The position numbers and the translations under genes were made by a program. The notes under the pieces were generated by a model, which saw only the letters and a list, made by a program, of their open reading frames with translations, searched no databases and was not told where the DNA came from. A stretch of DNA of 64,000 nt from Gammaproteobacteria bacterium (GTDB lineage Bacteria > Pseudomonadota > Gammaproteobacteria > Ga0077536), in assembly GCA_016191285.1 (NCBI GenBank), contig JACPPA010000027.1, forward strand, positions 41,603 through 105,602. The letters are read 5' to 3'. Below, piece after piece: positions 15,230 through 55,333 of the stretch (position 1 is its first letter; the number at the start of each line of letters is the position of its first letter).

Positions 15230-15994
15230 CTAGTAAATCTTCAGCACCGCTGCGTCCGATTTTTCTTCGTCGTAATTCTCGTAGCCTTCGCCTGGCGGAT
15301 TCCCGTCGTAAATTTTATATTCACGTTGCTGACGGTAGGCTTCGCGCACGAAGGTATAGGGATCGAGTGCGGCTTGGTCACGAATGCTGGTGGCTTCGAG
15401 CAGGTTCGCGCGGGTATTCACCGCACTTAAAACCCCAATCGGAATCGTCACGATGCTGTTAACCCAGGTTAACGGGTTAAGCGCCATGCTCGATGCCAAA
15501 TTGGGTAGATCGCGGAACGAATTTGGACCGATCACTGGCACTACCAGATAAGCACCTTCACCCATACCCCAGGTTCCGAAGGTTTGGCCGAGGTCTTCGT
15601 CATGCGACACCAAGCCAATTTTCGTCGCTGGGTCAAACAGGCCACCGACGCCAACCGTGCTGTTGACGACAAACCGACCCGTGTCGGACGCGAACTGTCC
15701 CCCCTTACCCTGGAGCAAGTCGTTCGCGATGACGTTTATATAATTAACGTTGTCAAAGAATTTAGTCACCCCAGCACGCACGGGCTCCGGTGTCACTTTG
15801 GCGTAGCCGCGGGCCACGGGCTCGAAGAAATTCCGGTCTAGCGTGTCGTTAAAGCCATAGGCTTTGCGGTTAAATCTCTCGTAGGGATCATTGGCATCGC
15901 TCGTCTCGGCAGTCTTGGGCGTAGAAGCACAGCCTGCGCCGAGTAAGCTCAAGGTCAACGCGAATACGAACGTACTATTTCTCTTATTTAGCAT
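15230..15994 (-). CDS. mlaA: MlaA/VacJ-family outer-membrane lipoprotein
   Basis: ATG at 15994 gives MLNKRNSTFVFALTLSLLGAGC with a lipobox. YERFNRKAYGFNDTLDRNFFEPVARGY is the VacJ signature. Confidence 0.85.
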   Translation of the reverse strand: MLNKRNSTFVFALTLSLLGAGCASTPKTAETSDANDPYERFNRKAYGFNDTLDRNFFEPVARGYAKVTPEPVRAGVTKFFDNVNYINVIANDLLQGKGGQFASDTGRFVVNSTVGVGGLFDPATKIGLVSHDEDLGQTFGTWGMGEGAYLVVPVIGPNSFRDLPNLASSMALNPLTWVNSIVTIPIGVLSAVNTRANLLEATSIRDQAALDPYTFVREAYRQQREYKIYDGNPPGEGYENYDEEKSDAAVLKIY

Positions 15995-16060
15995 GGTGCC
16001 GTTTCCGATGGGTTTAGCGAGATAGTCTTGTGCTTTAAGACACACGGGCGCTTAAATTCG

Positions 16061-16669
16061 TTACTTATTTGCAGCCTCGTATGATGCAACCTTAGCATTG
16101 AGTTTGGCAATAAGAGTGTCAATTCCGTTACTCCCTATAACGGCGGTGTACTCGGCGCGCTTTAGCGAAAGATCGGAGACGCCGTCAGCAACTACGTTAA
16201 TAATGCGCCACCCATCGGCTGATTTGCCCAGGGCATAGTCGAGGGTGTCTTCTTTACCATCTGGCTTAACGATGGCAGTTTTGACCAATTGCGCGTTCTT
16301 TTTGTCTTCCACGCCGCGCGTTTCAAATCGTTCGTTGCCAAACGAGCTGAAATTGTCGGCATACGTGGCGATACTGAGTTGAGTGAACACCGCGATGAAT
16401 GCTTGCTGCTTGGCCTTGTCGAGTTTCGCCCAATAGCGACCAGTGACCAGCCGTGCGATCCCGGCGAAATCAAAGGCGTCGCGCAAAACGGGCTCTAATT
16501 TCGAAGCGCGCCCTTTGTACCCCAAGGATTTTCCGTCCCGCATGGTTTCGAGTAGCGCGCTATGCAATTTCTCGACGGTGGCTTGCGGCGATGATTCAGC
16601 CGCATGGGCGGCCGGGGAACCTAGGCAGAGTGCGGCCAACCCGGCGATCAAGTAACGGTTAAAGCGCAT
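16061..16669 (-). CDS. hpnM: MlaC/Ttg2D-family periplasmic lipid-binding protein (HpnM-like)
   Basis: Signal peptide MRFNRYLIAGLAALCLGSPAAHA and a Ttg2D-like body (FDFAGIARLVTGRYW...). It lies between mlaA and hpnB. Confidence 0.6.
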   Translation of the reverse strand: MRFNRYLIAGLAALCLGSPAAHAAESSPQATVEKLHSALLETMRDGKSLGYKGRASKLEPVLRDAFDFAGIARLVTGRYWAKLDKAKQQAFIAVFTQLSIATYADNFSSFGNERFETRGVEDKKNAQLVKTAIVKPDGKEDTLDYALGKSADGWRIINVVADGVSDLSLKRAEYTAVIGSNGIDTLIAKLNAKVASYEAANK

Positions 16670-16719
16670 CGATTTCTCCTTGTGAAGGATGCCGCGAATG
16701 GACCGCGATCCTCAAAATT

Positions 16720-17871
16720 TTAATGATTGCTACCCGTCACGGCTGATGTTCTGCGGTCGTAGACCCGGTTCTTCCAGCGCGAACGCTCTCCGAACCAAAA
16801 TCTAACGGCGGAAGTCCAGGTCATCGCCAAGTATAAGAAGGCCGCGATTGGCAAACTCACCATCCACCACCAGCGGCGCCGATAATACTTCACCGTTGGC
16901 CAATAGGTCGTGAACATCAAGCACAAGGCGGCCAGCGCGGCGCCGCGGACGTAGGCGTCTTGAACACACAGGCCGAGCACTGGCACGGCGAAGAGCAGGA
17001 GCATTAAACCACTGCAAAGGATTAATAGCAGCGATGAATAGCGCAGCTGGGTGAACGCCGTCCGCGCGACCATGTTCCAGATCGAGGAGAGGTCGGGATA
17101 GGGCCGAATCGCGCGAACAGCCGTCGACAGCCCGAGCCACAACCGGCCGCCCGCGTCTTTGATCCTGCGCGCCAGGGTACAGTCGTCGATTAACGCGCCA
17201 CGCAACGCCGCGAAGCCGCCGATCGCGTGCAAGGCTTCAGTTCGAATTAACACACAGCCACCGGCCGCCGCCGCGACCCAACGGGTGGACGCATTCGTCA
17301 ACGCGAAGGGATACAGCAGTTTGAAAAAATAAATAAACGGCGGAATCAACAATGACTCCCACGCTGAAACCATCGAGAGTTTTGCCATTACCGACACCAT
17401 CGTTCGCTCTTCATCTTCTAGCTTCCGGACGAGTGCTGACAGGATCCCCGGGGCAAGTTCGATATCGGCATCGAGCAAAAGCGTATAAGAGCTTTCGACG
17501 AGTCCAAGTCCCTGGTGTAGCGCCCAGAGTTTTCCACTCCAACCCGGCTCGGGCGCGCTGCCGTAAACAATTTCCAGGGTTGCCAGATTTTCGGCACACG
17601 CCACCGCGGCAGTTCCATCGTCGCTTTGATCGTCGACCACGATGATTTTAGCCACCTGGCCTTGGGCCGCGACGCCGCGTAAGGTACGGCCTATGGAATC
17701 GGCCTCATCGCGGGCGGGAATCAACACCGAAACGCTGCTGAGATCGCATACGATGTGTCCACTGGGGAGCGCTTCGATATGTTCAGCGGTGCTCCAGGGG
17801 CGCCACGGCAGGAGCGCGATCACCAACCAAATTACCAGCGCCGCGGCGGCCAAGCTCGACCACGCGATCAT
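16720..17871 (-). CDS. hpnB: Hopene-associated family-2 glycosyltransferase HpnB
   Basis: GT2 core (VSVLIPARDEADSIGRTL..., VVDDQSDDGT, LLLDADI) plus C-terminal TM segments. It is adjacent to hpnH. I chose the ATG at 17871; the alternative is a TTG at 17922. Confidence 0.75.
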   Translation of the reverse strand: MIAWSSLAAAALVIWLVIALLPWRPWSTAEHIEALPSGHIVCDLSSVSVLIPARDEADSIGRTLRGVAAQGQVAKIIVVDDQSDDGTAAVACAENLATLEIVYGSAPEPGWSGKLWALHQGLGLVESSYTLLLDADIELAPGILSALVRKLEDEERTMVSVMAKLSMVSAWESLLIPPFIYFFKLLYPFALTNASTRWVAAAAGGCVLIRTEALHAIGGFAALRGALIDDCTLARRIKDAGGRLWLGLSTAVRAIRPYPDLSSIWNMVARTAFTQLRYSSLLLILCSGLMLLLFAVPVLGLCVQDAYVRGAALAALCLMFTTYWPTVKYYRRRWWWMVSLPIAAFLYLAMTWTSAVRFWFGERSRWKNRVYDRRTSAVTGSNH

Positions 17872-17932
17872 CGGGCGGAGCTTAACTTTATGGACGTGGG
17901 TTGGGCCGCCGGCACGGCCCAACCGCGAGGAT

Positions 17933-19063
17933 TCAAGCGACGCGCTTGGCGTTACTGCTACCGGCGGCGCTATCCGTCCGCGCGACTAAGCGTGGCTTCG
18001 CCACCGGTTCGTCCGTGTAGTGGAAGGGCACTTCGGGCGCCATGGCGCCGGTGGTGCGCGGTCCACGCAGCAATACCTTGAGTGCTTTTAGCGGATGGGT
18101 AACGGTGTCATTGACGGCCGTCGCTTCATAACCGCAGTGAACCATACAGTCGGCACATTTCGGATTAACGCCGGTCCCGTATTTCTCCCATGCCGTGTCT
18201 TCGATGAGCGACTTGAAACTGGTGGCATAGCCTTCGCCAACCAACAAATAGCACGGCTTCTGCCAGCCAAAGACGTTACGCGTTGGGTTCCCCCACGGCG
18301 TGCAGTGGTAGGTTTGATTTCCAGCCAGAAAGTCCAGATACAAGGTGGACTGATTGAAGCGCCAGCCGCGGCCTTTGCCCGTTTTGAAGAGGTCGCGGAA
18401 CAATTGCTTGCTGGAAGTACGCTTCAAAAAGACGTCTTGTCGTGGGGCTCGCTCGTAGCTGTAGCCGGGCGAGATCGTGACGCCTTCAACCCCGAGTTTC
18501 ATCATGTCATCCATGAACTGCGCGACTTCGTCGGCTGCTTCACCTTGGAACAGGGTGCAATTGACGGTAACGCGGAAGCCGCGGGCCAGCGCGATTTGAA
18601 TCACTTCGACGCACTTGTCGTAAACCCCGTCGCGACATACCGAAGCGTCGTGACGATCGCGATTACCATCGAGATGAATGGAGAAGGTTAAATAGGGCGA
18701 CGGCGTGTACTCGTCCATTTTTTTCTCGAGTAACAGCGCATTGGTGCAGAGGTAGACGAATTTCTTGCGCTCGATATAGCCCTGAACGATCTGTCGCATG
18801 TCGCGGTGAATCAGCGGTTCGCCGCCGGCAATCGAGACGATAGGCGCGCCGCATTCGTCGATGGCGGTCATGCAGTCTTCAAAGCTCAAGCGCTTGTCGA
18901 GGATATCGTCGGGATAATCAATTTTGCCGCAGCCGGCGCAGGCGAGATTACAGCGAAACAACGGCTCTAACATGAGCACTAAGGGAAAGCGTTTAACGCG
19001 CTTCAATTTCTGCGTGAGAACGTAGCGACCAACGCGATATTGCTGAATTAATGGAACGCCCAT
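17933..19063 (-). CDS. hpnH: Radical-SAM adenosylhopane synthase HpnH
   Basis: FPLVLMLEPLFRCNLACAGCGKIDYP contains the CxxxCxxC motif. 376 aa, with the typical HpnH N-terminus MGVPLIQQYRVGRYV. Confidence 0.9.
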   Translation of the reverse strand: MGVPLIQQYRVGRYVLTQKLKRVKRFPLVLMLEPLFRCNLACAGCGKIDYPDDILDKRLSFEDCMTAIDECGAPIVSIAGGEPLIHRDMRQIVQGYIERKKFVYLCTNALLLEKKMDEYTPSPYLTFSIHLDGNRDRHDASVCRDGVYDKCVEVIQIALARGFRVTVNCTLFQGEAADEVAQFMDDMMKLGVEGVTISPGYSYERAPRQDVFLKRTSSKQLFRDLFKTGKGRGWRFNQSTLYLDFLAGNQTYHCTPWGNPTRNVFGWQKPCYLLVGEGYATSFKSLIEDTAWEKYGTGVNPKCADCMVHCGYEATAVNDTVTHPLKALKVLLRGPRTTGAMAPEVPFHYTDEPVAKPRLVARTDSAAGSSNAKRVA

Positions 19064-19362: not shown

Positions 19363-21258
19363 ATGACCGAGTTCACCAATTACCCACTGCTGCAAAAGAT
19401 CGATTCGCCGCATGATCTACGCCAGCTCCCGGAATCAGCGTTAGAGCAAGTCGCTAAGGAACTACGGGCCTATTTACTGGAATCGGTGAGCAAAAGCGGC
19501 GGTCATTTTGCCGCCGGTCTCGGATCGATCGAACTTACCGTGGCATTACATTTCCTTTACGACACCCCCGAAGATCGAATCGTGTGGGATGTTGGTCATC
19601 AAGCGTATCCGCACAAGATTCTCACCGGCCGGCGCGATCGGATATCTTCGATCCGTAAATTAAATGGGCTTGCGCCGTTTCCGAAGCGCGATGAAAGCTC
19701 CTATGACACCTTCGGCGTGGGGCATTCGAGTACGTCCATCAGCGCGGCGCTCGGCATGGCCATTGCTGCCCAGCGGACGGGGAGTCACCGGCGCGCCATA
19801 GCCGTGATTGGTGACGGCGGACTGACGGCCGGCATGGCCTTCGAAGCCCTGAACCATGCCGGCGATATCGGCGCCAACCTGCTCGTGATCTTGAACGACA
19901 ACAACATGTCGATCTCGCCAAATGTCGGCGCGCTGTCGAATCGCTTTGCGCAAATATTGTCCGGCAAGTTGTACACTACGGTGCGTGAGGGCAGTAAAAA
20001 GGTGCTGTCGCAAATGCCGAGCGTGTGGGAACTCGCACGCCGTGCCGAAGAACATGTCAAGGGTCTGATTGTGCCGGGCACATTATTCGAAGAGTTCGGC
20101 TTCAATTACATTGGGCCGATTGACGGTCATCATCTGCCCACGCTGCTATCGACCTTACGCAATCTGCGTAAGCTCGAAGGGCCACAATTTCTGCACATCA
20201 TCACTAAGAAGGGCAAGGGCTACGCCCCGGCCGAAGCTGACCCAGTTAAGTATCATGGAGTTTCGCCGTTCGATCCAAAATTAGGGATTGTATCCGCGAC
20301 CAAGGTCAGCAAACCGACGTACAGCGATGTGTTCGGCGAATGGGTATGCGATATGGCCGCCATCGACGAACGTTTGGTCGCGATTACCCCAGCGATGCGC
20401 GAGGGCTCCGGGCTAGTGCGCTACGCGCGCGAATATCCCGCGCGTTATTTAGATGTCGCTATCGCAGAACAGCATGCGGTGGCGGTGGCCGCCGGGATGG
20501 CGTGCGATGGGTTAAAACCCGTAGTCGCCATCTATTCAACTTTTCTACAGCGCGCCTACGACCAGGTCGTTCACGACGTGGTGTTGCAGAAGCTGCCCGT
20601 GCTTTTCGCGCTCGACCGCGCGGGGCTGGTGGGCGCGGATGGTCCAACTCACAACGGTAGTTACGACGTGTCGTTCCTGCGCTGTCTGCCCGATCTCGTG
20701 TTAATGGCGCCCGCGGATGAAAACGAATGCCGCCAAATGTTATTTACTGGTTTTGTGCTTGGTCAGCCGGCGGCAGTGCGCTATCCGCGCGGTTCCGGCA
20801 CCGGCGTCGCGGTTGAAAAGCAGATGACCGCGCTACCCCTTGGTAAAGCGCAAATCCGGCGTCGCGGTCGCAAGCTAGCGTTGCTCGCCTTCGGCAGCAT
20901 GGTCGCGCCAGCCGAGGAGGTTGGTGAACGGATTGATGCGACGGTTGTGAACATGCGATTTATCAAACCTATTGATGAGGAGCTAATTCTCGAACTCGCA
21001 GCCAGCCACGATTTGCTGGTGACGTTGGATGAAAACGCGATCGCCGGTGGTGCTGGCGGCGCGATCGCTGAAACATTGGCAGCGCATGGCCGGGCCGTTG
21101 AACTGTTGCATATCGGGCTTCCAGATCGCGCAATCCAACACGGTTCGCGCGAGGAAATGCTAGTCGATGCTGGGCTAACGGCGATTCAGATTGAGCAAAC
21201 CTTGCGTCCGCGTTTATTGCGGCTTGATTCCCATACGCCGAGCGCTCGACTAGTCTAG
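19363..21258 (+). CDS. dxs: 1-deoxy-D-xylulose-5-phosphate synthase
   Basis: 631 aa with [35 protein letters not shown] and [18 protein letters not shown]. Confidence 0.97.
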
Positions 21259-21362: not shown

Positions 21363-22451
21363 TCAATCGGCCGTCGCGATAATTTCCTCAAACGCCGCGC
21401 ACAGCCGGCCCACATCCTGGGGGCTGATGGCACCCATCATCGAGATCCTAAAGATTCCAGCGGCGAGCGTGCTTTGACCGGCGTAGATCACAAACCCGCG
21501 CGCTTTCAGCGCGTCGTGAAATTCTCCGTAACTTAAACCTTGCGGTAATTCGAATGCGTGCAGGACGCACGAAGACGCGCCCTCGCGCAGTAGCGGACGC
21601 ACGCCAAGACGAATTAATAAATGCCGAACTTGGATGATGCGCGCGCGGTAAATATCGCGTCGCGCGTGCCAACCGCCTTCCGCTGCGAGTTCACACAAGG
21701 CAGCCGCCAGCGCATAAAAGGTTTGCACCGATTGCGTGAAGGGCGTGCCGTTTTTATCCTGGTGCTCGACATAGGTTTGCAGATCAAAATAGACGGTGCG
21801 TTTGGGTGATTGAGCCGCGGCCAGCGCGTCGCGTCGCACAATGACAAAACACGTACCAGGGACGCCATGCAGGCATTTATTGGCGGTAGCCGCCACCGCC
21901 GCGATTGGCCACTGCTCAAAATTAATTTCCTCCGCGCCAAAACTGCTGACTCCATCAAGCAGCAATTCCGCGCCGTGCTCGCGGCAAAGACTCGCCAGCG
22001 GCGCGAGATCGTTGAGCCGGCCGGTGGTCGTCTCATGATGGACCACGGCGACATGGGAAATTGCCGGATCTCCCCGCACGGTTGTTCGGATACGCGTGAG
22101 ATCAAGTTCCTCCAACCAGTCGTGGCGAAGTCGCTCGTAACGAATTGTGTGACGCTCGCAGATCGCGGCGATACGCTCGCCATAGACACCGTTTTCAAGC
22201 ACCAGGACTTTGCCGGTGCGTGGCACGAAGCTAGTCAGCATGGCTTCGACCGCGGCCGTGCCAGAGCCGGTAAGCAATACCGCCGCCCAGGCGTCCGGCG
22301 GCAACTGGTAAACCGCGAGTAGGCCGCGGCGAATTTCCGCTTGGAGATCGGCGAACTCTGGCTCGCGATGGCATAGGTCGGGGCCCAGCATCGACTCGCG
22401 AACGCGATCGGTAAGCGTAACGGGACCAGGATTGAGCAAGATGGTTTTCAC
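21363..22451 (-). CDS. phnW: 2-aminoethylphosphonate:pyruvate aminotransferase (class V)
   Basis: ILLNPGPVTLTDRVRESM, LLTGSGTAAVEAM and ATANKCLHGVPGTCFVIV motifs. GTG start in a GTGA overlap with the ppd stop. Confidence 0.8.
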   Translation of the reverse strand: MKTILLNPGPVTLTDRVRESMLGPDLCHREPEFADLQAEIRRGLLAVYQLPPDAWAAVLLTGSGTAAVEAMLTSFVPRTGKVLVLENGVYGERIAAICERHTIRYERLRHDWLEELDLTRIRTTVRGDPAISHVAVVHHETTTGRLNDLAPLASLCREHGAELLLDGVSSFGAEEINFEQWPIAAVAATANKCLHGVPGTCFVIVRRDALAAAQSPKRTVYFDLQTYVEHQDKNGTPFTQSVQTFYALAAALCELAAEGGWHARRDIYRARIIQVRHLLIRLGVRPLLREGASSCVLHAFELPQGLSYGEFHDALKARGFVIYAGQSTLAAGIFRISMMGAISPQDVGRLCAAFEEIIATAD

Positions 22452-23602
22452 AAGTTCGAGCCGAGATGGAGCCGCAAACGATCCAACACTTGCACCGGTG
22501 TGATCGCGGGTCGCGGCAAATTGTCGATCGTCCCGGTCGCGATCTTTAAATGCAGAAAATTGGGTCCGTCGCGCGTCGACGGTTTTAACACTTGGCGCAG
22601 TGCTTCGATATTGTTCCCACGAATGACTCGCGTATATCCACAGGCTTTGGCGATCTCCGCGAAATCCACATTCGCCGACACGGTCGCCTGTGCGCCGGTT
22701 GAGTCGTGCGCTTCGTTATCGAGCAGCACGTGATAAAGGTTGGTTGGCCCGTAGCTGCCCACAGTCGCGAAATTACCCATGCGCATCAACGCCGCGCCGT
22801 CGCCATCAACGACGATCACGCGCAGATCCGACCGTCGCAGCGCGAGACCTAAGCCAAGACTTGAAGCGCACCCCATCGAGCCCACCATATAAAAGTGGTT
22901 TGGGCGATCCGCTGTCGCATAGAGTTCGCGGCCGGTAAATCCGGTAGTCGCGATTACGATCGAATCGTCTTTCGCCTGGACACAGATCTCGTCCAAGACC
23001 GTAGCACGACTCAGGTATGGCGCGACCGTGGCCGGCGAACCAAGCGTCTCGATGACATGACAACGGTCGCGCGCCGCGACGCTTCGATTTTCGAGCGGAC
23101 GCGATTCAACCGCGCCTTTTTGCATGATTAATGCGTACGGCCGGCGTTCCGTCGCCATGTAGTCGGTGGCTCGCGTGAGCACCGGTTCGATTTTTTCGAT
23201 AGTGTCCGGAAAAGCCTCCGATGGGATGCGCATCGTATCGAATAGCTCGGTGGTGATTTGCCCCATCAGTTCATGTTGCGGTTCGTCAGCGACCCCGGGT
23301 GCGCCGCGATGCGTGCAGATCACCAACATCGGTATGCGAAACACATACGCCAGTGACGTGAGCGGGCTAATCGCGTTGCCGAGTCCAGAATTTTGCATCA
23401 TGGCGACACCGCGTGTGCCAGCGAGAAATGCGCCAGCAACGGTCGCGACCGCATCGCCTTCGTTGGCCGATGAAATATAGGTCAATGTCGGGGAGTCGAT
23501 CACCTGGTTGATGAATGGTGTCAGAAAAGAGCACGGCACTCCGGCATAGAATTCAAACCCGTGCGCGCGGGCCCGCGTAATGAAATCAGCGGCCTTTATC
23601 AC
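22448..23602 (-). CDS. ppd: Phosphonopyruvate decarboxylase (ThDP-dependent)
   Basis: 384 aa with GFEFYAGVPCSFLTPFIN and a ThDP motif region (VVDGDGAALMRMGNFATVG...LDNEAHDSTG). Confidence 0.85.
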   Translation of the reverse strand: MIKAADFITRARAHGFEFYAGVPCSFLTPFINQVIDSPTLTYISSANEGDAVATVAGAFLAGTRGVAMMQNSGLGNAISPLTSLAYVFRIPMLVICTHRGAPGVADEPQHELMGQITTELFDTMRIPSEAFPDTIEKIEPVLTRATDYMATERRPYALIMQKGAVESRPLENRSVAARDRCHVIETLGSPATVAPYLSRATVLDEICVQAKDDSIVIATTGFTGRELYATADRPNHFYMVGSMGCASSLGLGLALRRSDLRVIVVDGDGAALMRMGNFATVGSYGPTNLYHVLLDNEAHDSTGAQATVSANVDFAEIAKACGYTRVIRGNNIEALRQVLKPSTRDGPNFLHLKIATGTIDNLPRPAITPVQVLDRLRLHLGSNL

Positions 23603-23614
23603 TGCAACTACACG

Positions 23615-25267
23615 CTAGCCGGTGAGGCCGGCGAACGAACGCGCGGGTTCCAGATCTTTGACCGAATTAACGTCCAACCAATGACCGTGGACGTACCACA
23701 CGTGCACGGGTTTGCCATTCAGCACGAGGCTGTTTAGTAGATCCGGCATTCCCAATCGGGCGAAATCTGCGCGTAATTGCAACGCGTTCAAGATGTCCTC
23801 GAACCAGCGACGCCCTTCATTTTGAATTCGAACCATGCCAATCCAACGCCCATTGGCGCGATTTCCCGCCTGGTCCGCGGTTCTAGTCAATTGCTTCAGC
23901 GTGACTGCCTGTCCCCACATCGCGCGGTCATCGGATTCACTGCAAAATGCGAAATCACCGGTTTCGTTTGGCGCCCGGCTAACACTCGAGTCCACGACGA
24001 TGGTAATCGCGGCATCGTTTTCGATCAGATCGCGCAATATGTAGCTGCGAAACAATAGATCGCCATAGGTCACGATCATATCGTCCGCGAAGCAATGCCG
24101 AGCGCACACCAAGGAGGCCAATTCGCCCGTGGTTTCATGTTCACGGTTCATCAGCAGCCGAATACCGTTCACGTCGATACTATCGGCCTTGTAGCCGGCG
24201 ACGACGGTAATGTCGTCAACGCCACGCTTTTTGAATTTATCCACGAGATGCCGCAGCAACGGCTTACCACTGATCGGCAACATGACTTTTGGCCGATCAT
24301 CGGTCAGCGTCGAGAAACCGTCGCCGCGCGATGCCGCGAGCACAATCGCCTTACTCTCAGTCCGAGTATTCGAAAAATAGCGTTCTTCCGCGGCCTCGAG
24401 TTCATCGGCGCCTTGTAATCGAAATATCTCATCAACCGTCGCGATTCGATCTTCGATTTCGATCAGCGATTGATCAGCAAAAATCTTTGCGGCTGACTGC
24501 TGCATCGCGCTGACCGCGCTGCGAATCATGTGATTGGCCCAGATCACCAAACTAATTTGGGCGCGGCGAAAGACTTCCACCGGGGTGCTGTAGTATTTCG
24601 TCGGGACGATGACCAGCGGTGCACGATTCGACCACTCTTTGGAAAACTCAAGAATTTGATCGGGCCGCGATAGCTTGCTGTGAATCAGAATCGCGTCAGC
24701 GCCGGCGCGGCGATAGGCTTCGGCGCGGCGTAGCGCCTCGCCGATATCCCAGCCTGCGATCAGGGCCTCGACGCGGGCGATGATCGAAAAATCGGGATCG
24801 TTTTGGATGTCCTTGCCGGCTGAAATCTTGCCGCTGAATTCGTTAATGTCGGCGAGCGGTTGCCGTTCACCACCGATAAAGCTGTTGGTTTTGGGAAATA
24901 TCTTGTCTTCGATGCAAACGCCCGCGATATCGCGCTGCTCAAGTTTGCGCACCAAGCGACGCATATTGTTGAAATTGCCGTAGCCGGTGTCGCCATCGAG
25001 CAAAATGGGTACCGCGGTGACATCCGACATGAATTCGAGGTTGTCGACCACCTGAGTCCAGCTCGCCTCGTTGTTATCGCGCACGCCAAATTGCGCCGAA
25101 ATGGCGAGACCGCTCGCCCAAATGCCAGAGAACCCGGCTTCCTCCACAATTCGCGCGCTAATGCCATTGTGTGCTTCGCAAATAAATTCTAGATTCGGCG
25201 ATTGCAGCAGCGCTTTTAAGCGAGTCGCTTTACGGATTCTCGGTGAACTACTGTCAGACGCGACCAT
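23615..25267 (-). CDS. pepM: Phosphoenolpyruvate mutase fused to a C-terminal nucleotidyltransferase (PntC-like) domain
   Basis: The first ~290 aa are PepM: [56 protein letters not shown] and [13 protein letters not shown]. The C-terminal ~250 aa are nucleotidyltransferase-like: [34 protein letters not shown]. Confidence 0.85.
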
Positions 25268-26000
25268 TTTGTAGCCTCGGTAGGATTTCGTGTCGAGCGC
25301 GCTCGATATCTTCCGGAAAGTCGATTTCGAGCCAGGGCAAGCCGCTAATGTCTTCGACGCCGAGTGGCACGCCGCCGGTCATGATCAGGTCGCGTAGCGC
25401 TTCTTCATACGGTGCATCAAGCAGGTCGCGCGCGACATAGCGTTCGCATTGTGCCGCTAACGCCGCTGCCCCCAGGCGATCGAATTTAAAAAAGCCGACA
25501 GACTCACCACAGTAATCATAGGCGATTCCTGGGTCGAGCTGTTTCCTAAATTCAACGATCTTGTCGGCTCGTAGGCACAACTTAACCGGCTCGTCGCCCG
25601 GTATAAAGTCGCGATCCAATAAAAAACAATTACGATGCGCGCTGCGAATGAGTCGCGTCATGATCGCGGGGTCATACAGCACGTCGGCGTCCATCAAGAT
25701 CACGTCGTCGCCAGTGTTGAGCGCAGCGCGCACCGTCCACAAACTCACCACACTCCCGCGACGATAGTCGGCATTGCGCACCGAGCTAACGTTGCTTATC
25801 CCGCAGGCATTTACCGCGCCGATAAGTTCTTCGCCTTGATAGCCGACGCACAGGGTAATTTGGGTGATGGCGTGCGCCGCGAGGATGCGTAGGTGGCGAT
25901 GAATTAGCGACTCACCGCCAAACTCGAGTAAGGCTTTGGGTCGGGCGCCGAGCGCGCCGAGTCGATTGCCGATTCCGGCCGCTAGGATAATTGCCTGCAT
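25254..26000 (-). CDS. LicC-family nucleotidyltransferase (stand-alone, PntC/LicC-like)
   Basis: [37 protein letters not shown] carries the G-x-G-x-R-L NTP-transferase signature. The ~250-aa LicC-like architecture overlaps the pepM start by 14 nt. Confidence 0.7.
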
Positions 26001-26003
26001 GGA

Positions 26004-26750
26004 TTAAGAGGCTCGTCTGCCGAAGATTTGCTTAAATCCGAAATAGGCGATCGCATCCTTCATATTTGAGACAAACCGCCGCGTTGGATTGATGTAGGTA
26101 TTGGTGAGATATTCGAGCGTTAACACCACGCGTTCTTCGCCCGCACCGAGCGCGGTCACGCGATGATAGAGTTTATCGCCATTGAACAAAACGAGCCGCC
26201 CCGGCGGCAGATCGAGGCTCAACACTTCGGTCTCTCGAATTGGATCGTTTTTATACAACTGACATTCCAAACGGCAGCTCGACTTATCGATAAGACCGAT
26301 CAACACCGTATAACGTTCGCCTTGGTAGTACGACGTATCGTAGTGATAGCCTACGTGATCTCCTTCCTCGGTGTAGTAATACAGTGCGTAGGCGTGCGGA
26401 TCGCTGTTCGGGCATACGTGCAACCGTTTTTGCGTCAGGGTTTCGAGCGTGTTGAGTAACGGCGGGGAGGCATAGAGGGCTTTAAACTCGAACGCAGCCA
26501 GATCGAGGTGAAATGCGCTGATACTGCCGCCTTTTTTGTGCCCCGGAATATAATTCCGATGGAGCTGCGGGCGGAGTTCATGGGCGCGAGTAATTAAGCG
26601 TTTCAAAACGTCGTTCGGCACGCATTGATCGATCACCACAAACTCCGCCTGGGTCGTGAACTCAGCGCGTAGGCGCTCGAGCGGTAGCCGCCGGAGGTGA
26701 TTCGCCAAGCTTGCTTCGTCGTCGCGCGTAACGCTGGCGAGGGGCGTCAT
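26004..26750 (-). CDS. Putative Fe(II)/2-oxoglutarate-dependent oxygenase-like protein
   Basis: Candidate facial triad: HxD in GYHYDTSYY plus a distal His in LVLFNGDKLYHRVT, followed by ERVVLTLEY. I prefer the ATG at 26750 because it forms an ATGA overlap with the hpnA stop. The function is not recognised beyond the fold. Confidence 0.45.
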   Translation of the reverse strand: MTPLASVTRDDEASLANHLRRLPLERLRAEFTTQAEFVVIDQCVPNDVLKRLITRAHELRPQLHRNYIPGHKKGGSISAFHLDLAAFEFKALYASPPLLNTLETLTQKRLHVCPNSDPHAYALYYYTEEGDHVGYHYDTSYYQGERYTVLIGLIDKSSCRLECQLYKNDPIRETEVLSLDLPPGRLVLFNGDKLYHRVTALGAGEERVVLTLEYLTNTYINPTRRFVSNMKDAIAYFGFKQIFGRRAS

Positions 26751-27736
26751 GATTGACCACGCGAGAACCACGCGACGGCATCGGAGATCGCGCTAGACGC
26801 GGGTCGATGGTGATAGCCCAGTTCCGACTCGGCCCGCGAGCTATCGAAAAACATGCGTTTGCGCGACATGCGCAGGCCGTCGACGGTCACCTGAGGTTCC
26901 GCGCCATCCGTTACCCATGCCCAGGCTTCGGAGAGGTAAGCAATGGGGTAAACCAGCGCGCGTGGCAGTCGAATGCGCGGCGGCGCTCGACCGCAGCATT
27001 CGGCAATGGCGGTGAGGATTTCCTTAAGACTCAAGTTCTCGCCGCCTAAAATATAGCGACGGCCAACGCTGCCGCGGTCAAACGCTAGTACGTGACCCGC
27101 GGCGACATCGTCGACATGCACAATATTGAGACCCGTATCAACATACGCCGGTATTTTATTGCGCGCGGCATCGCGAATAACGCGCCCGGTCGGCGTCGGT
27201 TTGATGTCGTAGGGTCCGATGGGAGTCGACGGATTGACGATAATGGCTGGCAGTTGGCGGGTCTGCACGAATTCGTGCACGAGCGCTTCCGCTAAAAACT
27301 TCGAACGCTTGTAATGGCCAATCATATTCGACAACTGTACCGGCGCATTTTCATCGCTTGGGCTTCCGTCGTCATGCAGACCCAAGGTTGCGACGCTGCT
27401 GGTATACACCACGCGCGTGACGCTCGCCGCGAGGGCTGCCTCCATCAAATTGCGGGTGCCGTCAACATTGCTTGCGTACAAATCGTTGGGATTGCGCGTC
27501 CACAAACGGTAGTCGGCGGCGACGTGAAACACCGCCTCGACGCCCCTGCAGGCGTCACGTAGCGAGGCCGGGTTACGCAGGTCGCCGTCCACGCATTCGA
27601 TGGCCAAGCCGCTGAGGTTGCGCCGATCGCTCCCGGGGCGCGCAATGACGCGGACCGCGTCGCCCCTGGACAATAATTGACGCACAACTGCGCTCCCAAC
27701 GAAGCCAGTGGCGCCCGTGACAAGACAGTGGGTCAA
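26747..27736 (-). CDS. hpnA: Hopanoid-associated NAD-dependent sugar epimerase/dehydratase HpnA
   Basis: The Rossmann motif VTGATGFVGSAV follows directly after the TTG at 27736, which forms a TTGA overlap with the upstream stop. SDR-type YxxxK is present (YKRSK). The track's longer ORF to 27820 overlaps the preceding gene. Confidence 0.8.
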   Translation of the reverse strand: MTHCLVTGATGFVGSAVVRQLLSRGDAVRVIARPGSDRRNLSGLAIECVDGDLRNPASLRDACRGVEAVFHVAADYRLWTRNPNDLYASNVDGTRNLMEAALAASVTRVVYTSSVATLGLHDDGSPSDENAPVQLSNMIGHYKRSKFLAEALVHEFVQTRQLPAIIVNPSTPIGPYDIKPTPTGRVIRDAARNKIPAYVDTGLNIVHVDDVAAGHVLAFDRGSVGRRYILGGENLSLKEILTAIAECCGRAPPRIRLPRALVYPIAYLSEAWAWVTDGAEPQVTVDGLRMSRKRMFFDSSRAESELGYHHRPASSAISDAVAWFSRGQS

Positions 27737-28329
27737 ACGCGTTTTTCGAGCGCGATGTATTGCGCTGCACTGGCCGCGAGAGCAATGGGCGCCCCAATCG
27801 CGGCGGCAATCAAGAACCACTCCAAGCCATTGGCCAGCGTCACCAACGGCAAACCGTAAAGGATGTCCTCCGCTTCAACTCCGCCGAGTTTCGGTTGCGC
27901 CGTCGCCGCCTTGCCGTATTGTCGCTCAACGTTGTTACGTAGTTGAAAAATCCCTGCGACCGAAATTCCGGCCAGCGCACCTAACCATAACGCGCCCGAG
28001 CCGAGTGACGTGGCGAGACCAATCCCGATGCAAAAAAAAAGTCCAACCGTGACCAGGCCGTCTGCCGCCAAATCGTAATTATGGCCGAATTTACTTGCTT
28101 GGCCGCTAAGCCGTGCCAGCTCGCCGTCGGTGTGGTCAAGGAAATTTGAAACGACGATGATCAAAGCCGCGATATCGTCGGCGCCGCCCTGCGCAAATAG
28201 CGCCGCGCCAATAACGCCCACGATTAGACGTAACGTGGTTAAATGGTTGGGCGTGACACCGCTACCACGGAGCGGAGCGACGACGATCGCGGCTAACCGT
28301 GCATCCCAAGGTTTGTAGCTTTGCGCCAT
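27733..28329 (-). CDS. CDP-alcohol phosphatidyltransferase-family membrane protein
   Basis: 198 aa, multi-TM. The family motif D-G-x2-A-R-x8-G-x3-D-x3-D appears as DHTDGELARLSGQASKFGHNYDLAAD. Confidence 0.8.
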   Translation of the reverse strand: MAQSYKPWDARLAAIVVAPLRGSGVTPNHLTTLRLIVGVIGAALFAQGGADDIAALIIVVSNFLDHTDGELARLSGQASKFGHNYDLAADGLVTVGLFFCIGIGLATSLGSGALWLGALAGISVAGIFQLRNNVERQYGKAATAQPKLGGVEAEDILYGLPLVTLANGLEWFLIAAAIGAPIALAASAAQYIALEKRV

Positions 28330-28331
28330 GG

Positions 28332-29069
28332 CTAGGCGGATTTCGTCAGTGAGGGGTGGCTATATTCGCATGGCAGCGCGGCGGCGGCACGCTTGAGGTG
28401 CTTTAATGCTGAACCGTATTGCAGCCCCAAACGTAGCAACGCGAGTAACTCCCACGGCCGCCGACCACTCGCCACGACCACTCGCCACGCCGAATGATTG
28501 GAAGGGCCGAGCGCCACCAATGCCGTGGCCGTGAGTGATGTCGTCGCCGGATCCGAAATCACGCGGAGTCCGGCGAAACCCAGACCATGGGTGCGGGCGA
28601 CAGCGGCGATCGCCGCTGATTCCATATCTACGGCCGCGCATCGGTAACGCCGGTTTAACCCTGCCTTTTCGTGCGGCATCGTGACCGGCGCCGAAACAGA
28701 GAGTCCGATGCGTTGGCGGACATTTAGATGGTTTAAGCGGGTCATGGTTTGCTCGATCCAGCGGGGATCGCAGCGATACTCGGTTTCGGTCGCGGCATCG
28801 ATCACAGAGGTATACAGAATCAAATTACCCGCCTGCAATTCAGCTTCAAGCCCACCGGCGACACCCCACGACACGAGTAGCTCAGCACCTTGCGCGACTA
28901 ATGTATTCGCAGCGGCAGTTGCGGCGGCTGATCCAATCCCACCGCACGCCACTCGCGGCCATTCGGCAACCGATCGCGCGCGCCGGCCGAGTGTCGCGGC
29001 CTCGGCGGGCATGGCGGTCACGAAGCCTATCCGCTGAAGGCGTGCGCGGTGCTCGTCGTTTGCGATCAT
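28332..29069 (-). CDS. hpnG: Hopanoid-associated nucleosidase/phosphorylase HpnG (PNP/UDP family)
   Basis: 245 aa with IGFVTAMPAEAATL, WGVAGGL and AVDMESAAIA. ATGA overlap with the sqs stop. Confidence 0.8.
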   Translation of the reverse strand: MIANDEHRARLQRIGFVTAMPAEAATLGRRARSVAEWPRVACGGIGSAAATAAANTLVAQGAELLVSWGVAGGLEAELQAGNLILYTSVIDAATETEYRCDPRWIEQTMTRLNHLNVRQRIGLSVSAPVTMPHEKAGLNRRYRCAAVDMESAAIAAVARTHGLGFAGLRVISDPATTSLTATALVALGPSNHSAWRVVVASGRRPWELLALLRLGLQYGSALKHLKRAAAALPCEYSHPSLTKSA

Positions 29070-30172
29070 GATCTGGAATGCTGAGCTTCAAGTCCTTCAA
29101 TATAGGTCGGTCCGCACGCCACAATATCGAGGCGCGGCAAGCCCCGCGACGAGACATAGAATAGTGCGCGTAACGCCGTGTTATTCGTGGCCGCAAGGCT
29201 GGTGGCGGCGATCGTTAGTTGCACTTGGCGACGAGATATTTTGACCTCTGTGCTCGATCTGAATAGTGGGTTCGTATTGATCTTGCGCAAAGTCAGTACC
29301 GCCATCCCTAATGCCCACAGGCAAAATTTTCGGATCCCAGCCTGCTCCGGCGGAATCTTCAACGTATAGCGCAAGGCATTTTGCAAATGACCGTGGGTCA
29401 CCCCGACTAGCTGTTGGATGACGGCGGCGAACTCCACGCCGCCATTGCCAGGGTTCAAGTCGCTTAGGCGAAGGCCATGATGCGCGAACTCATCTCGCGG
29501 TAACCAGCAGGCACCGCGTGCGCGGTCATCCCAAATATCCTTGAGAATATTGGTCATCTGCAGACCTTGACCGAACGAAACCGCGAGACGCATGAGTTCG
29601 TCGGCTGCGGTGCGCAAAGTTTGACAGTAGTCACAAAATAGTTCGGTTAGCATTTCGCCGACTACGCCAGCGACGTAATAGCAGTAGCGATCGAGCGCGC
29701 GTTGATCACTGACCCCCTCCAGCGTTTCTTGCCCTTGATAAAACACCATGCCGTCGAGCATCACGCGTACGCAGCGTTCAAGAGCATTGCGTTGAGTCGG
29801 ATTCAAGGAGTGTGTAATGCGCAAGACTCGATCAGCGTTGGCAATCAGATCGCGTTCGTCTGCGGAATTGTGGGCGGCTAGTTGTGGCGCAAGCTCTTGG
29901 CCAAAGTGAACTGGGCCCGCGCTGCTCTGTACAGCGCGCAAAAAAAGCGCCGAATAGTGCCGCTTGAGTTCGAATGGCAATGTCGCATCATCCTCGATCG
30001 TGTCTGCGATTCGACACAGCAAGTAAGCGTTTGCGACGGCCCGATAGAGGCCTTCGGGTAAGACTGGAATGGTTAACGCGAAGGTTCGCGAAACCCCTTG
30101 CAGGATGTGCGCTTGGTACTCGTCATCGGTAAGCGTCGAAAACCTTGCGAGCACCACAGCCTCCAAGTGCAC
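29066..30172 (-). CDS. sqs: Squalene synthase (farnesyl-diphosphate farnesyltransferase)
   Basis: 368 aa with LQGVSRTFALTIPVLPEGLYRAVANAYLLCRIADTIEDD and a second Asp-rich region (ILKDIWDD). This is the single-protein SQS type, not HpnC/D/E. Confidence 0.8.
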   Translation of the reverse strand: MHLEAVVLARFSTLTDDEYQAHILQGVSRTFALTIPVLPEGLYRAVANAYLLCRIADTIEDDATLPFELKRHYSALFLRAVQSSAGPVHFGQELAPQLAAHNSADERDLIANADRVLRITHSLNPTQRNALERCVRVMLDGMVFYQGQETLEGVSDQRALDRYCYYVAGVVGEMLTELFCDYCQTLRTAADELMRLAVSFGQGLQMTNILKDIWDDRARGACWLPRDEFAHHGLRLSDLNPGNGGVEFAAVIQQLVGVTHGHLQNALRYTLKIPPEQAGIRKFCLWALGMAVLTLRKINTNPLFRSSTEVKISRRQVQLTIAATSLAATNNTALRALFYVSSRGLPRLDIVACGPTYIEGLEAQHSRS

Positions 30173-51322: not shown

Positions 51323-51847
51323 ATGCGCCTTCTCACTCTCGCTCTCGTATTTGCCCTTATTGGATGCGGCGCGACGATTCAATCCTACGAGCACCTCAGT
51401 AACGAGACGAGACATAATTTATCGACTCATATCGGTGGCCAGGTTTTGAGAATCCAGCGCACATCAGATCTTCCGAATGCTTTCGGGAAGGCGGATATCT
51501 TCGGTGGCAAAGTCAATAACGGCTACACCGAACTATGGTATCAAGGCTTAGTTCCGGATGATCGCGTCGTTTTTCGTATCACCGAAGTCGAGACTGAATC
51601 CACCGAAACCACGATGAGCCGATACGGCAGTTCTAGGTCGACGGTCAGTGCCCAGCGCGTTGGTGACAATCTCTATGGCACGGTTACTTCGTATAGTGCT
51701 CCGAGCGGTAGTACAGAACGTTTGCCACCCAATATGACAGAGTTTGCGGTTGATCCAAATAAGAGCAAAGAATTCAGCGTCGCCGGGGTGACGGTCCGAA
51801 TTATCAATGCCACCGAAACATCGCTGTCTTATCAGCTTTTAAAGTAG
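51323..51847 (+). CDS. Hypothetical lipoprotein
   Basis: MRLLTLALVFALIGC carries a lipobox. There is no recognisable domain. It ends 7 nt before the IS66 terminal repeat. Confidence 0.5.
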   Translation: MRLLTLALVFALIGCGATIQSYEHLSNETRHNLSTHIGGQVLRIQRTSDLPNAFGKADIFGGKVNNGYTELWYQGLVPDDRVVFRITEVETESTETTMSRYGSSRSTVSAQRVGDNLYGTVTSYSAPSGSTERLPPNMTEFAVDPNKSKEFSVAGVTVRIINATETSLSYQLLK

Positions 51848-53415
51848 GCTGGTAGTAAGCGATCAACCAACCGCAATTTTTTCGGTGTGATAGCGGTGTG
51901 CATATGATCTGACGCTGGGACAGCCATGTCTTCTCTGAGCGCCACCGCCCACGGTAGCAGTGCTTCGATTTTCTCCACCGTATCCGCCGCCGGGAGTGCG
52001 TTGAAGACATGGCAGAGATAGCGATACGGCTCAAGCCCGTTCGCTTTCGCCGTCTCGATTAAGCTGTACAGATTGGCGGATGCCTGTGCACCCTTCACGG
52101 TATCCGCAAACAACCAGTTCTCGCGGCCAATCACAAACGGTCGGAGTGCATTCTCAGCGGCGTTGTTGTCGAGCGGATAATCGCCGTCCTCTAGAAAGCG
52201 CACGAGCTTCGGCCATTGCTCATTCAGGTAGTGCAGCGCTTTGCCCAGCAACGATTGGGGTGCGACGCCGTGTAGCTCGACTTCCACGCGGTGTTTGATT
52301 CGCGCCAGTAACGGCGCACTGTCACGTTGACGCAAGGCGCGGCGCGCGTTGGCCGCGAGACCTTTCGCCCGCGCCGCCACCGGGATTAAATCTTCCGCTT
52401 CAACCAACCGTCGTCGCGCCTGCGCCCAACAGCCTAAGTGACTGAGCGGTACCGTGCGCGCCACCACGTCATACACTTCATAACCGTCGGTCACCAGCAC
52501 CCCCTTGGCACCGGCATATAAATCAAGCGCGGTCTTGGCACTGCGCGACGGCGCATAGGTGAATAATCGGACCGGCGGCCCCGTGCCTGTCAGCTGTAAC
52601 CATAGATAAGACTTCGAGGTGGCGGCCCGACCGTCTTCCTTCAACACCTGCAGCTCGGTCTCGTCGCCATGCAGCACGGCGGCGTCGAACAGTCGGTCAC
52701 GCAGCAGATTAATCAACGGCGTCACCGCCTGACCCGCGCGAATAACACTGTGCGCCAAAGTGTGCCGCGCGATATCCCCGCCGAAGCGCCGCAAGATGGC
52801 CGCCTGCCGGTACAACGGCAGCGCGTCTTGGTACTTCGCGGTAATCACCCACGCCAACGCAGCCTCACTCAATTGCGACTTCGGCAGCAACCGCAACGGC
52901 CCGGGTGCCACCCGCACCCCTTGCACACAACAGGGACACGCGTACTTCACCCGCTCATGCCGAATCACCCGAATCAACGCTGGCACGATGTCCGGCTGCT
53001 CGGCCGTCTCCACACCCATCTCACGTAACACTGCGCCGTCGTGCGGACACACGCGTTCCGACGCCGGTAACTCATGCCGCACTACCATCCGCGGCAAGCC
53101 CGCATCCAAGGGTTTGCGCCCGCCACGCTTGCGCGAGTGCGACGGCACCTCCACACGCGTGGCCTCAGTCTCTGGCGCGACGCTGAGTGCCGCCCGTGCT
53201 TCCGCTTCGTTGAAGAATAAATCCGATTGCGCTAAGGAATCTCTGCAAAAGGCAGAGATTCCCGCGGCACAGGGAAGTGCCGCCATTTTCAACGGTCGCA
53301 GATCGTTGAAAATGAAGGAAAACAAAAATCGCACTTTTTGTTTTCCGTACTCTGAAAAGTCCAGGAGGGACTTCACCGCGCAAGCCATTAATACATAATT
53401 TATCGCACCGATCAC
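51832..53415 (-). pseudogene. IS66 transposase TnpC with the N-terminal region replaced
   Basis: TnpC similarity begins at DLFFNEAEA...RKRGGRKPLDAGLPR...CPHDG...KYACPCC and continues to ...EALLPW. The first ~60 codons are encoded by repeat B, and the ORF reads through the terminal repeat. Confidence 0.7.
53236..53374 (-). repeat. Five-hairpin structured repeat, copy B (inverted relative to A; outer hairpin truncated)
   Basis: The reverse complement aligns with copy A at roughly 85% identity by eye. Substitutions in stems 2, 3 and 5 are paired on both arms. Confidence 0.8.
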
Positions 53416-55273: not shown

Positions 55274-55333
55274 GGAGTGATCTCCCCTTCGATTGCAGCG
55301 CCTCTTCGATATCGAGCCGAGATTCGGTGCAGG

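Follow-up and report, generated by a model that had tools for sequence, protein, structure and literature searches.

A CDP-alcohol phosphotransferase encoded within a gammaproteobacterial hopanoid operon is predicted to transfer an activated aminoethylphosphonate to a lipid

The 64,000-nucleotide stretch analysed here (the window; positions 41,603 to 105,602 of contig JACPPA010000027.1, assembly GCA_016191285.1, from a gammaproteobacterium of the lineage Ga0077536) carries a nine-gene operon in which genes related to hopanoid synthesis alternate with genes for the synthesis and activation of aminoethylphosphonate (AEP). The third gene of this operon encodes a small CDP-alcohol phosphotransferase (CDP, cytidine diphosphate) of the clade CDPOH-1, hereafter X, which is predicted to be a CMP-(hydroxy)AEP:lipid phosphonotransferase (CMP, cytidine monophosphate). 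By orthology and genomic context, X is the uncharacterised transferase of a widespread AEP cassette referred to as Group 1, and this specific enzyme prediction is not new. We tentatively propose that X is the head-group transferase of an AEP lipid-tailoring pathway that would, in this lineage, have become fused into a hopanoid operon. With a little more reserve, we suggest that X might esterify (hydroxy)AEP to the polar end of a bacteriohopanepolyol, whose products, phosphono-hopanoids, would form an undescribed class of lipids. We found no description in the searchable literature of the precise interleaving of X with hpnG or hpnN and hpnA, or of the recurrence of the linkage between cassette and hpn genes across Gammaproteobacteria, Betaproteobacteria and Cyanobacteria.

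Sequence, fold and relatives of X

The product of X matches Pfam family PF01066 (E 6e-17, 62.9 bits against a gathering cut-off of 22), and a regular-expression search located the complete motif D65-H-T-D68-G69-E-L-A72-R73-x8-G82-x3-D86-x3-D90 from residue 65 onwards. Residues 65 to 90, DHTDGELARLSGQASKFGHNYDLAAD, fit the superfamily signature D(x2)DG(x2)AR(x7-8)G(x3)D(x3)D on helices 2 and 3. Every residue of the motif is invariant across the 26 family members of alignment A1, in which a second, family-specific invariant block is also found (G139-K140...Q145...G150-F-E152-x-E154-D155...Y158). An AlphaFold2 model built on A1 (mean pLDDT 90.9, pTM 0.85) consists of seven helices, a short one at the N terminus and six long ones (residues 8-20, 27-47, 51-75, 80-104, 112-138, 153-165 and 169-197), and thereby matches the superfamily's core of six transmembrane helices preceded by an interfacial helix. 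An earlier note on this DNA, made from its letters, had described a membrane protein of 198 residues with a full CDP-alcohol motif, a description that family match, motif and model all bear out. With more than 3,600 homologues at E<=1e-3 and a gene order that recurs in dozens of genomes, X is real far beyond chance. The identical protein is on record solely from a metagenome assembly, and the nearest genome relative, 94% identical and encoded in the same gene order, comes from a gammaproteobacterial metagenome-assembled genome (MAG) of a glacier-fed stream (L001).

When scored against the named families of NCBIfam, X reached 24 bits for pgsA (cut-off 109.1) and 25.5 bits for pssA (107); the scores of all 26 aligned members likewise remained below these two cut-offs, and Pcs matched neither X nor any of the 26. 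The best named families, AIPS (54.1 bits, cut-off 180), ClsA (38, 240), PIPS (34.4, 170) and DIPPS (32.2, 580), all fall far under their cut-offs, for X and for the 26 aligned members alike, placing X, as judged from its sequence, outside every named equivalog family. Among proteins of solved structure, the sequence search ranked AF2299 first (E 1.5e-8), followed by IPCT-DIPPS, the mycobacterial phosphatidylinositol phosphate (PIP) synthase and CEPT1, while Foldseek returned TM-scores of 0.80 for AF2299, 0.73 for IPCT-DIPPS, 0.6 to 0.7 for PIP synthases, 0.63 for CEPT1/CHPT1 and ~0.45 for PgsP/PSS. From these sequence and fold rankings, X is a distinct clade nearest to enzymes whose donors are soluble CDP-activated head groups. 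That X might instead be one of the housekeeping synthases of phospholipids (PgsA, PssA or Pcs), lying here by chance, could be argued from the Pfam superfamily that they have in common, but this identity was rejected on the NCBIfam scores and the distance in fold, and the position of X in the cassette, conserved across phyla, speaks against it as well; we give it practically no weight. A close kinship with PgsA or PssA, which would have told against the reading of the earlier note, is not seen.

The closest relatives of solved structure are two proteins from Archaeoglobus fulgidus, AF2299 and IPCT-DIPPS (PDB 4o6m, 4mnd). They have a core of six helices and the site D(x2)DG(x2)AR...G(x3)D(x3)D in common with X, and have as their partner a PF12804-type cytidylyltransferase making a soluble CDP- or CMP-activated head group. 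Their identity to X is only ~21%, however, and X is devoid of the fused cytoplasmic domain; its predicted donor is a CMP-phosphonate with a C-P bond where IPCT-DIPPS uses CDP-inositol, and its acceptor is presumably a lipid where that of IPCT-DIPPS is inositol phosphate. The eukaryotic CEPT1/CHPT1/EPT enzymes have superfamily and chemistry in common with X and are matched at E 1.8e-4, but possess ten helices, 380 to 400 residues and a dedicated diacylglycerol chamber, and belong to another clade than the six-helix, 198-residue X. LicD-type phosphotransferases of the Lic/Pnt pathways (PMC6697681) resemble X in attaching a head group activated by PntC or LicC to an envelope acceptor, yet are unrelated to it in fold and family, and transfer to glycans or teichoic acids, not to lipids.

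The aminoethylphosphonate cassette and the donor

A genome-wide scan (A1) yielded 321 relatives of X; neighbourhoods were counted in the best 80 loci, the neighbours of X in the window being mapped by tblastn. Genes for the cytidylyltransferase PntC, phosphoenolpyruvate (PEP) mutase (Ppm), phosphonopyruvate decarboxylase (Ppd) and AEP aminotransferase (AEPT) were present in 53 of the 58 loci with at least 5 kb of sequence downstream of X (~90%), and their linkage to X holds even where hpn genes are not nearby, as in Steroidobacteraceae, Trinickia, Burkholderia, Cupriavidus and cyanobacteria. This near-obligatory co-occurrence argues for X being the natural CMP-AEP-using transferase. Copies of X from Burkholderia, Cupriavidus and Mycetohabitans are 52 to 55% identical to that of the window over 85% of the query, and the replicons that carry them show the order X - oxygenase - HpnL - PntC - Ppm/PntC - Ppd - AEPT. 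In a neighbour-joining distance tree of 113 non-identical copies, which carries no support values, X falls within the main clade together with Burkholderiales, Steroidobacteraceae and the first cyanobacterial copies, apart from a second group of transferases, CDPOH-2. Co-occurrence with the cassette and placement in the tree thus identify X as a core gene of the AEP cassette and not a stray in a hopanoid cluster. The earlier note, which had found X wedged between hpnG and hpnA, was right as to its position, which is no oddity once X is recognized as belonging to a known and widespread cassette.

On sequence grounds, X is orthologous to the CDP-OH transferase of the 'Burkholderiales_CDP-OH' cassette, whose seven-gene core (Li & Horsman 2022, PMC8942020) corresponds, according to its authors, to the group that Yu et al. 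2013, as relayed by PMC8942020 and PMC5987646, named 'Group 1 phosphonolipids'. This cassette makes up 318 of 882 ppm neighbourhoods, about a third, and is predicted to make a 1-hydroxy-AEP lipid (PMC8942020), so that its 'known' function is itself a prediction with an uncharacterised product. A version from Nostoc, drawn to include 'hpnL', has been published with a phosphonolipid scheme (PMC5987646). The window shares with the Group 1 cassette the Ppm-PntC fusion, Ppd, AEPT, the second PntC and an oxygenase dependent on 2-oxoglutarate (2OG), and differs from it in being spliced into a hopanoid operon, with hpnA between X and the oxygenase and hpnG upstream. It also represents a six-gene version, missing the seventh core gene (HpnL / LPG-synthase TM) that is present in most other loci.

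The donor can be approached through the two cytidylyltransferases of the operon. The best solved relative of the stand-alone enzyme, NT248, is the AEP-specific PntC of Treponema denticola, followed by IPCT, and NT248 also scores 71 bits against the IPCT-domain model NF041135; the PF12804 domain fused to Ppm has LicC (1jyk) as its best solved relative. PntC enzymes make CMP-AEP (PMC6697681). In the 2OG/Fe(II) oxygenase, H143-x-D145...H203 and R214 are kept in at least 97% of 77 homologues, and the conservation of this HxD...H triad and of the downstream Arg indicates a hydroxylase rather than a halogenase. Other loci have, directly upstream of X, a gene for a PhnY*-like hydroxylase of the PhyH family that replaces or joins the oxygenase. 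We consider it very probable that the donor used by X is CMP-AEP or CMP-1-hydroxy-AEP and, with less assurance, expect the oxygenase to hydroxylate AEP, probably to 1-hydroxy-AEP; given that a 2OG/Fe(II) hydroxylase is conserved in the cassette, CMP-1-hydroxy-AEP is the probable donor rather than plain CMP-AEP. The transfer of CMP-activated (hydroxy)AEP onto a lipid hydroxyl is thus well supported on the donor side, and has already been predicted in the literature. It had also been proposed in the earlier note, to which the co-occurrence with the cassette lends support as far as a transferase joining a CMP-activated phosphonate to a lipid is concerned; of CMP-AEP as its donor the CMP-phosphonate is retained, whereas plain AEP probably gives way to the hydroxylated form.

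Hopanoid linkage and the acceptor

Hopanoid side-chain genes enclose or adjoin the cassette in four settings that differ in gene order, namely many gammaproteobacterial lineages, Steroidobacteraceae, Mycetohabitans and Nostocales, and at least one hpn gene is present in 57 of the 80 X loci. In the window type, shared with more than 50 gammaproteobacterial loci, the two sets of genes are interleaved (sqs-hpnG-[hpnN]-X-hpnA-[hpnL, other strand]-oxygenase-...-AEPT, then dxs, hpnH, hpnB, hpnM, mlaA), and hpnA directly follows X in 66 of the 124 CDPOH copies surveyed. Loci L035 and L047 show the order hpnH-...-sqs-shc-hpnG-hpnA-X-oxygenase-hpnL-.... On the megaplasmid pBRH01 of Mycetohabitans rhizoxinica, hpn genes and cassette occupy one stretch of ~22 kb (hpnD-shc-hpnG-hpnB-hpnA-hpnH-ispH-hpnM-hpnN-(two hypothetical genes)-dxs-AEPT-Ppd-Ppm-PntC-HpnL-oxygenase-X). 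The arrangement in Nostocales HT-58-2 is HpnI (365.6 bits, cut-off 310) - B12 radical SAM - X - PhnY*-like - PntC - Ppm - Ppd - AEPT, with HpnH (548 bits) and HpnA (491 bits) encoded ~2.4 kb beyond AEPT; hpnH and/or hpnA adjoin the cassette in ten cyanobacterial loci, and an HpnI-like gene stands beside the radical SAM-X pair in at least five genomes. 

The seventh gene of the cassette is a true TIGR03476 HpnL (302.6 and 309 bits, cut-off 195.65). The hopanoid literature describes HpnL as enriched near shc and calls its function unknown (PMC12583986; bioRxiv 10.1101/2025.07.29.667474), and the family is absent from genomes without hpnH (PMC12583986). HpnL genes lie at L040:11385-12422, L069:3450-4484, L054:1428-2399 and L162:16442-17443 (227 to 309 bits), and the cassette of L040 has kept its copy though no hpn gene occurs within 10 kb. 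This flippase-like family may belong to the phosphonate pathway. As for shc, it resides on 13 of the 14 PLSDB replicons carrying X, and in the Steroidobacteraceae-type CTOTU9903 and MFD09671.bin.4.222, whose cassette locus is without hpn genes, it is found on another contig or 18 kb away (shc scan, best 80 of >572 loci). Within this scope, no genome with the cassette but without shc was seen. In the Lehman Caves bin, hpnN-X-hpnA (L037) and hpnL-oxygenase-PntC-Ppm (L170) are on different contigs, a split that leaves X with the hpn genes, though the contigs are short, so that misassembly is possible; a loss of the phosphonate genes from this bin was considered and rejected, Ppm being present on L170.

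The recurrence of hpn linkage in four settings and the identity of the seventh gene as HpnL lead us to favour, tentatively, a hopanepolyol-type acceptor over diacylglycerol. The co-occurrence of X with shc, the split in the Lehman Caves bin and the unbroken coupling of the window operon lean in the same direction. Several observations weigh against this choice. For 10 to 20 kb around the cassette, hpn genes are lacking in B. cenocepacia, B. multivorans and Cupriavidus and in many loci of Steroidobacteraceae, and 14 loci with at least 5 kb on both flanks, from Steroidobacteraceae MAGs and cyanobacteria, hold phosphonate genes without hpn genes. The notion of a cassette always clustered with hopanoid genes was rejected on account of the Burkholderia and Cupriavidus cassettes, which are without hpn neighbours within 20 kb; such stand-alone cassettes indicate that the clustering is not obligatory. 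Where it occurs, it could reflect the co-regulation of two envelope lipids and not the formation of one covalent conjugate, and our search of the searchable literature found no report of a phosphorus-containing hopanoid. To our knowledge, all known CDP-alcohol phosphotransferases with lipid acceptors take diacylglycerol, ceramide-like or phosphatidyl acceptors. Terpene-phosphonates are mentioned in passing remarks derived from cluster calls, for Acetobacteraceae (PMC8776678) and for Nitrosococcus (PMC8942020, citing PMC7285500).

The complete stand-alone cassettes of Burkholderia, Cupriavidus and many Steroidobacteraceae loci would sit well with X being a conventional phosphonolipid synthase, which would join CMP-(hydroxy)AEP to sn-1,2-diacylglycerol to give the C-P analogue of phosphatidylethanolamine, the hpn linkage then reflecting no more than co-regulation or co-transfer. 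Eukaryotic CEPT/EPT-type enzymes are classically credited with the synthesis of AEP-diacylglycerol from CMP-AEP, and CEPT1/CHPT1 are detectable relatives of X in both sequence and fold. A conventional phosphonolipid is also what the phosphonate literature predicts from this cassette, under the name 'Group 1 phosphonolipids' (PMC8942020) and in the Nostoc scheme (PMC5987646). However, although the cassette is prevalent in well-studied Burkholderia, no phosphonolipid product of it has yet been characterised (PMC8942020), and a diacylglycerol acceptor leaves unexplained both the repeated, independently arranged embedding among hpn genes across two phyla and the presence of HpnL as a core gene; we regard it as rather unlikely, though deserving of serious attention.

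Two further schemes depart from this chemistry at the donor or at the acceptor. If the polarity of the reaction were reversed, CDP-diacylglycerol would be the donor and the hydroxyl of 1-hydroxy-AEP the acceptor, by analogy with inositol phosphate in PIP synthase, and the product would be a phosphatidyl-hydroxy-AEP lipid. The archaetidylinositol phosphate and PIP synthases, with their small phosphorylated alcohol acceptors, are the named families closest to X after AF2299 and DIPPS, and the hydroxylase is a conserved member of the cassette; but two conserved PntC-type cytidylyltransferases, one of them closest to an AEP-specific PntC, would be left without a role, and the top fold matches are soluble-donor enzymes. 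Also at variance with a reversed reaction, the phosphonosphingolipid of Bacteriovorax is linked through the phosphonate. This is the known 1-hydroxy-AEP lipid of that organism (PMC8942020), and altogether we hold reverse polarity to be very unlikely. A soluble or non-lipid acceptor as in DIPPS, by which the phosphonate would pass to a sugar-phosphate, a polyprenyl-linked glycan or another envelope precursor, appears scarcely less improbable: AF2299 and IPCT-DIPPS are the best structural and sequence matches of X, NT248 resembles the IPCT domain, and genes for the glycosyltransferases HpnB and HpnI occur in the neighbourhoods, whereas glycan-decorating PntC pathways have been described with LicD-type transferases and not with CDP-alcohol phosphotransferases (PMC6697681), and the flippase-like HpnL and the lipid-transport genes nearby point to a lipid product.

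In the hopanoid-directed pathway that we tentatively prefer, AEP would be made by Ppm, Ppd and the aminotransferase, converted by the 2OG/Fe(II) oxygenase, probably to 1-hydroxy-AEP, and activated by a PntC-type cytidylyltransferase to CMP-(hydroxy)AEP. X would act on the cytoplasmic side of the inner membrane, where, aided by an Asp-bound divalent metal, a lipid hydroxyl would attack the phosphonate phosphorus and CMP would leave, in the reaction usual for the superfamily. The acceptor hydroxyl would be at the C-35 end of bacteriohopanetetrol (BHT), formed via HpnH, HpnG and possibly HpnA, or on a glycosyl head group attached to it, and the resulting phosphono-hopanoid would be exported or flipped, where these are present, by HpnL, HpnN, HpnM and MlaA-like proteins. 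The calculated [M+H]+ values are 654.4857 for BHT-AEP and 670.4806 for BHT-hydroxy-AEP. X would then resemble HpnI/J/K, HpnO, HpnB, HpnA and HpnL, with which it has operon or neighbourhood in common, in modifying extended hopanoids at their polar end; unlike them, it belongs to a family absent from the hpn genes named in two hopanoid papers (PMC12583986; bioRxiv 10.1101/2025.07.29.667474), in agreement with the earlier note, which had placed it outside the canonical hpn set.

Should phosphono-hopanoids exist, the widespread Group 1 cassette, found in Burkholderia, Nostocales and Steroidobacteraceae as well as in many uncultured Gammaproteobacteria, would be a hopanoid-tailoring module. It would give a pathway context to hpnA, hpnL and perhaps hpnB, all three listed as genes of unknown function (PMC12583986; bioRxiv 10.1101/2025.07.29.667474): HpnA would be a candidate ribosylhopane-to-BHT reductase or a short-chain dehydrogenase/reductase (SDR) acting on the head group, and HpnL a candidate flippase of the charged product. 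The products would constitute a new, geochemically relevant lipid class, C-P bonded, able to withstand phospholipases and phosphatases, and built on a biomarker skeleton of great stability. Standard hopanoid work-ups would have missed them, and through them hopanoid producers would be connected with the redox cycling of phosphorus in sea and soil. Were diacylglycerol to prove the acceptor, the X family would still provide the first definition of a bacterial CMP-phosphonate:lipid transferase. Which acceptor is used can be tested directly in cultured, tractable hosts (Burkholderia, Mycetohabitans, Nostoc).

Operon, variant loci and surroundings in the window

The operon runs on the minus strand from 30172 to 21363 in the order sqs-hpnG-X-hpnA-oxygenase-pntC-ppm/pntC-ppd-aepT (Table 1). 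Its eight junctions all lie between -14 and +12 nt (in order ATGA, 2-nt gap, TTGA, ATGA, 3-nt gap, 14-nt overlap, 12-nt gap, GTGA), and the whole operon is translationally coupled. The coupling on both sides of X pointed out in the earlier note, by a 2-nt gap to hpnG (TAG-CC-ATG) and a TTGA overlap with hpnA, can be read directly from the sequence and is part of a pattern that extends over every junction. From its TTG start, hpnA begins MTHCLVTGATGFVG; this start is supported by the alignment to TIGR03466, which opens with residue 3 on profile position 2. Internal promoter- or terminator-like sites are not commoner in the operon than in shuffled sequence, and a split of the operon by such sites was rejected, their numbers being the same as in the shuffles. 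The Ppm fusion has its EDKxxxxxNS motif at residue 120 and the PF12804 domain at residues 307 to 426.

Table 1. Genes and other features of the 64-kb window (position 1 is its first letter)
Feature	Position	Strand	Remarks
CDP-alcohol phosphotransferase (CDPOH-1 clade, X)	27733..28329	-	198 aa, ATG start, TGA stop, intact
Squalene/phytoene-synthase family, probable squalene synthase, first operon gene	29066..30172	-	PF00494 E 5.5e-59; TIGR01559 107 bits, under cut-off; ATGA overlap with hpnG
hpnG-like nucleosidase/phosphorylase	28332..29069	-	245 aa; PF01048; TIGR03468 HpnG 153.5 bits, under cut-off 187
hpnA, hopanoid-associated SDR ('sugar epimerase')	26747..27736	-	329 aa; TIGR03466 488 bits, cut-off 367.65
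2OG/Fe(II) oxygenase, predicted AEP hydroxylase	26004..26750	-	Pfam HalD E 2.4e-10 and 2OG-FeII_Oxy_3; ATGA overlap with hpnA
Stand-alone PntC-type cytidylyltransferase (NT248)	25254..26000	-	248 aa; PF12804; 6pd1 (T. denticola PntC) E 9.5e-16, full length
PEP mutase fused to second PF12804 (LicC-like) nucleotidyltransferase	23615..25267	-	550 aa; TIGR02320 388 bits, cut-off 319.55
Phosphonopyruvate decarboxylase (Ppd)	22448..23602	-	TIGR03297 438 bits, cut-off 312.5
AEP aminotransferase (AEPT), last operon gene	21363..22451	-	TIGR03301 408 bits, cut-off 360.8; GTGA overlap with ppd
dxs	19363..21258	+	Convergent with operon, between cassette and hpnH
hpnH, hpnB, hpnM, mlaA-like (rest of local hopanoid cluster)	15230..19063	-	TIGR03470 HpnH 551.6, TIGR03469 HpnB 386.8, TIGR03481 HpnM 209.3 bits, each over cut-off; MlaA-like E 3e-34
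IS66-family transposase	51832-53415	-	368 bits, cut-off 180
Two adjoining oxygenase genes	54131-56617	-	One HsaA-like flavin-dependent monooxygenase (240 bits, under cut-off); the other Rieske-type, weakly like sterol 4-methyl oxidase SdmA (79 bits)
Very large open reading frame	40093-45294	-	1733 aa
846-aa protein	1511-4051	-	Residues 570-842 match Ser/Thr kinase models (PknB/Stk1-type, 301 bits, under cut-off)

HpnA is the gene most tightly paired with X. The HpnA of the window and that at L199:16202-17203 score 235 to 251 bits against NF052578, the model of the sterol C-4 demethylation reductase SdmB (cut-off 600), and one might speculate that HpnA is the long-sought ribosylhopane reductase or an SDR of the head group. 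The order AEPT - dxs (opposite strand) - hpnH recurs in dozens of loci; at this junction of phosphonate and hopanoid genes dxs is convergent in gammaproteobacterial loci and co-directional beside the cassette in Mycetohabitans (L162:22377-24281). No shc, hpnN or hpnL lies within the 64 kb of the window, an HpnL-like gene having been sought by tblastn.

In some loci the gene just upstream of the oxygenase or PntC encodes a further transferase, the divergent paralogue CDPOH-2 (~37 to 40% identical), with CDPOH-1 staying between hpnN and hpnA. Such loci were found in gammaproteobacteria (L175, L180, L193, L214, L059/L177, L181+L020) and cyanobacteria (L055/L186, L188, L210, L185); the window carries CDPOH-1 only. 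The presence of two transferases beside two cytidylyltransferases suggests that those organisms use either two donors or two acceptors.

In cyanobacteria, a gene for a B12-binding radical SAM protein (DUF4070) is located directly upstream of X at L199:4648-6285, L042:8341-9996, L070:8023-9690 and 12 more loci, and overlaps the start of X by 4 nt in L199. The closest family of this protein is that of the PhpK-type P-methyltransferases; its identity as a hopanoid methylase (HpnP/HpnR) was rejected, the HpnJ and HpnR models scoring 43 to 59 bits against cut-offs of ~580 to 650. It is probably a phosphonate-tailoring methylase, and its position beside X is suggestive of a methylated phosphonate head group. 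In the complete genome of Chlorogloeopsis fritschii PCC 6912, on the chromosome, the radical SAM-X pair (L042) is separated by ~300 kb from oxygenase-PntC-Ppm-Ppd-AEPT (L182), indicating that X can be unlinked from the cassette. Nine Nostoc loci (L203, L204, L207, L211, L212, L215, L217, L218, L191) hold PntC-Ppm-Ppd-AEPT, often adjoining hpnH-hpnA, with no CDPOH gene within ~7 kb upstream; the transferase would either lie at another site of these genomes or have given way to a different enzyme.

Away from the operon, the window also contains the IS66-family transposase, the very large open reading frame and the protein with kinase-like C-terminal matches given in Table 1, as well as the pair of adjoining oxygenase genes, which may serve the oxidation of steroids or polycyclic terpenoids in a hopanoid producer.

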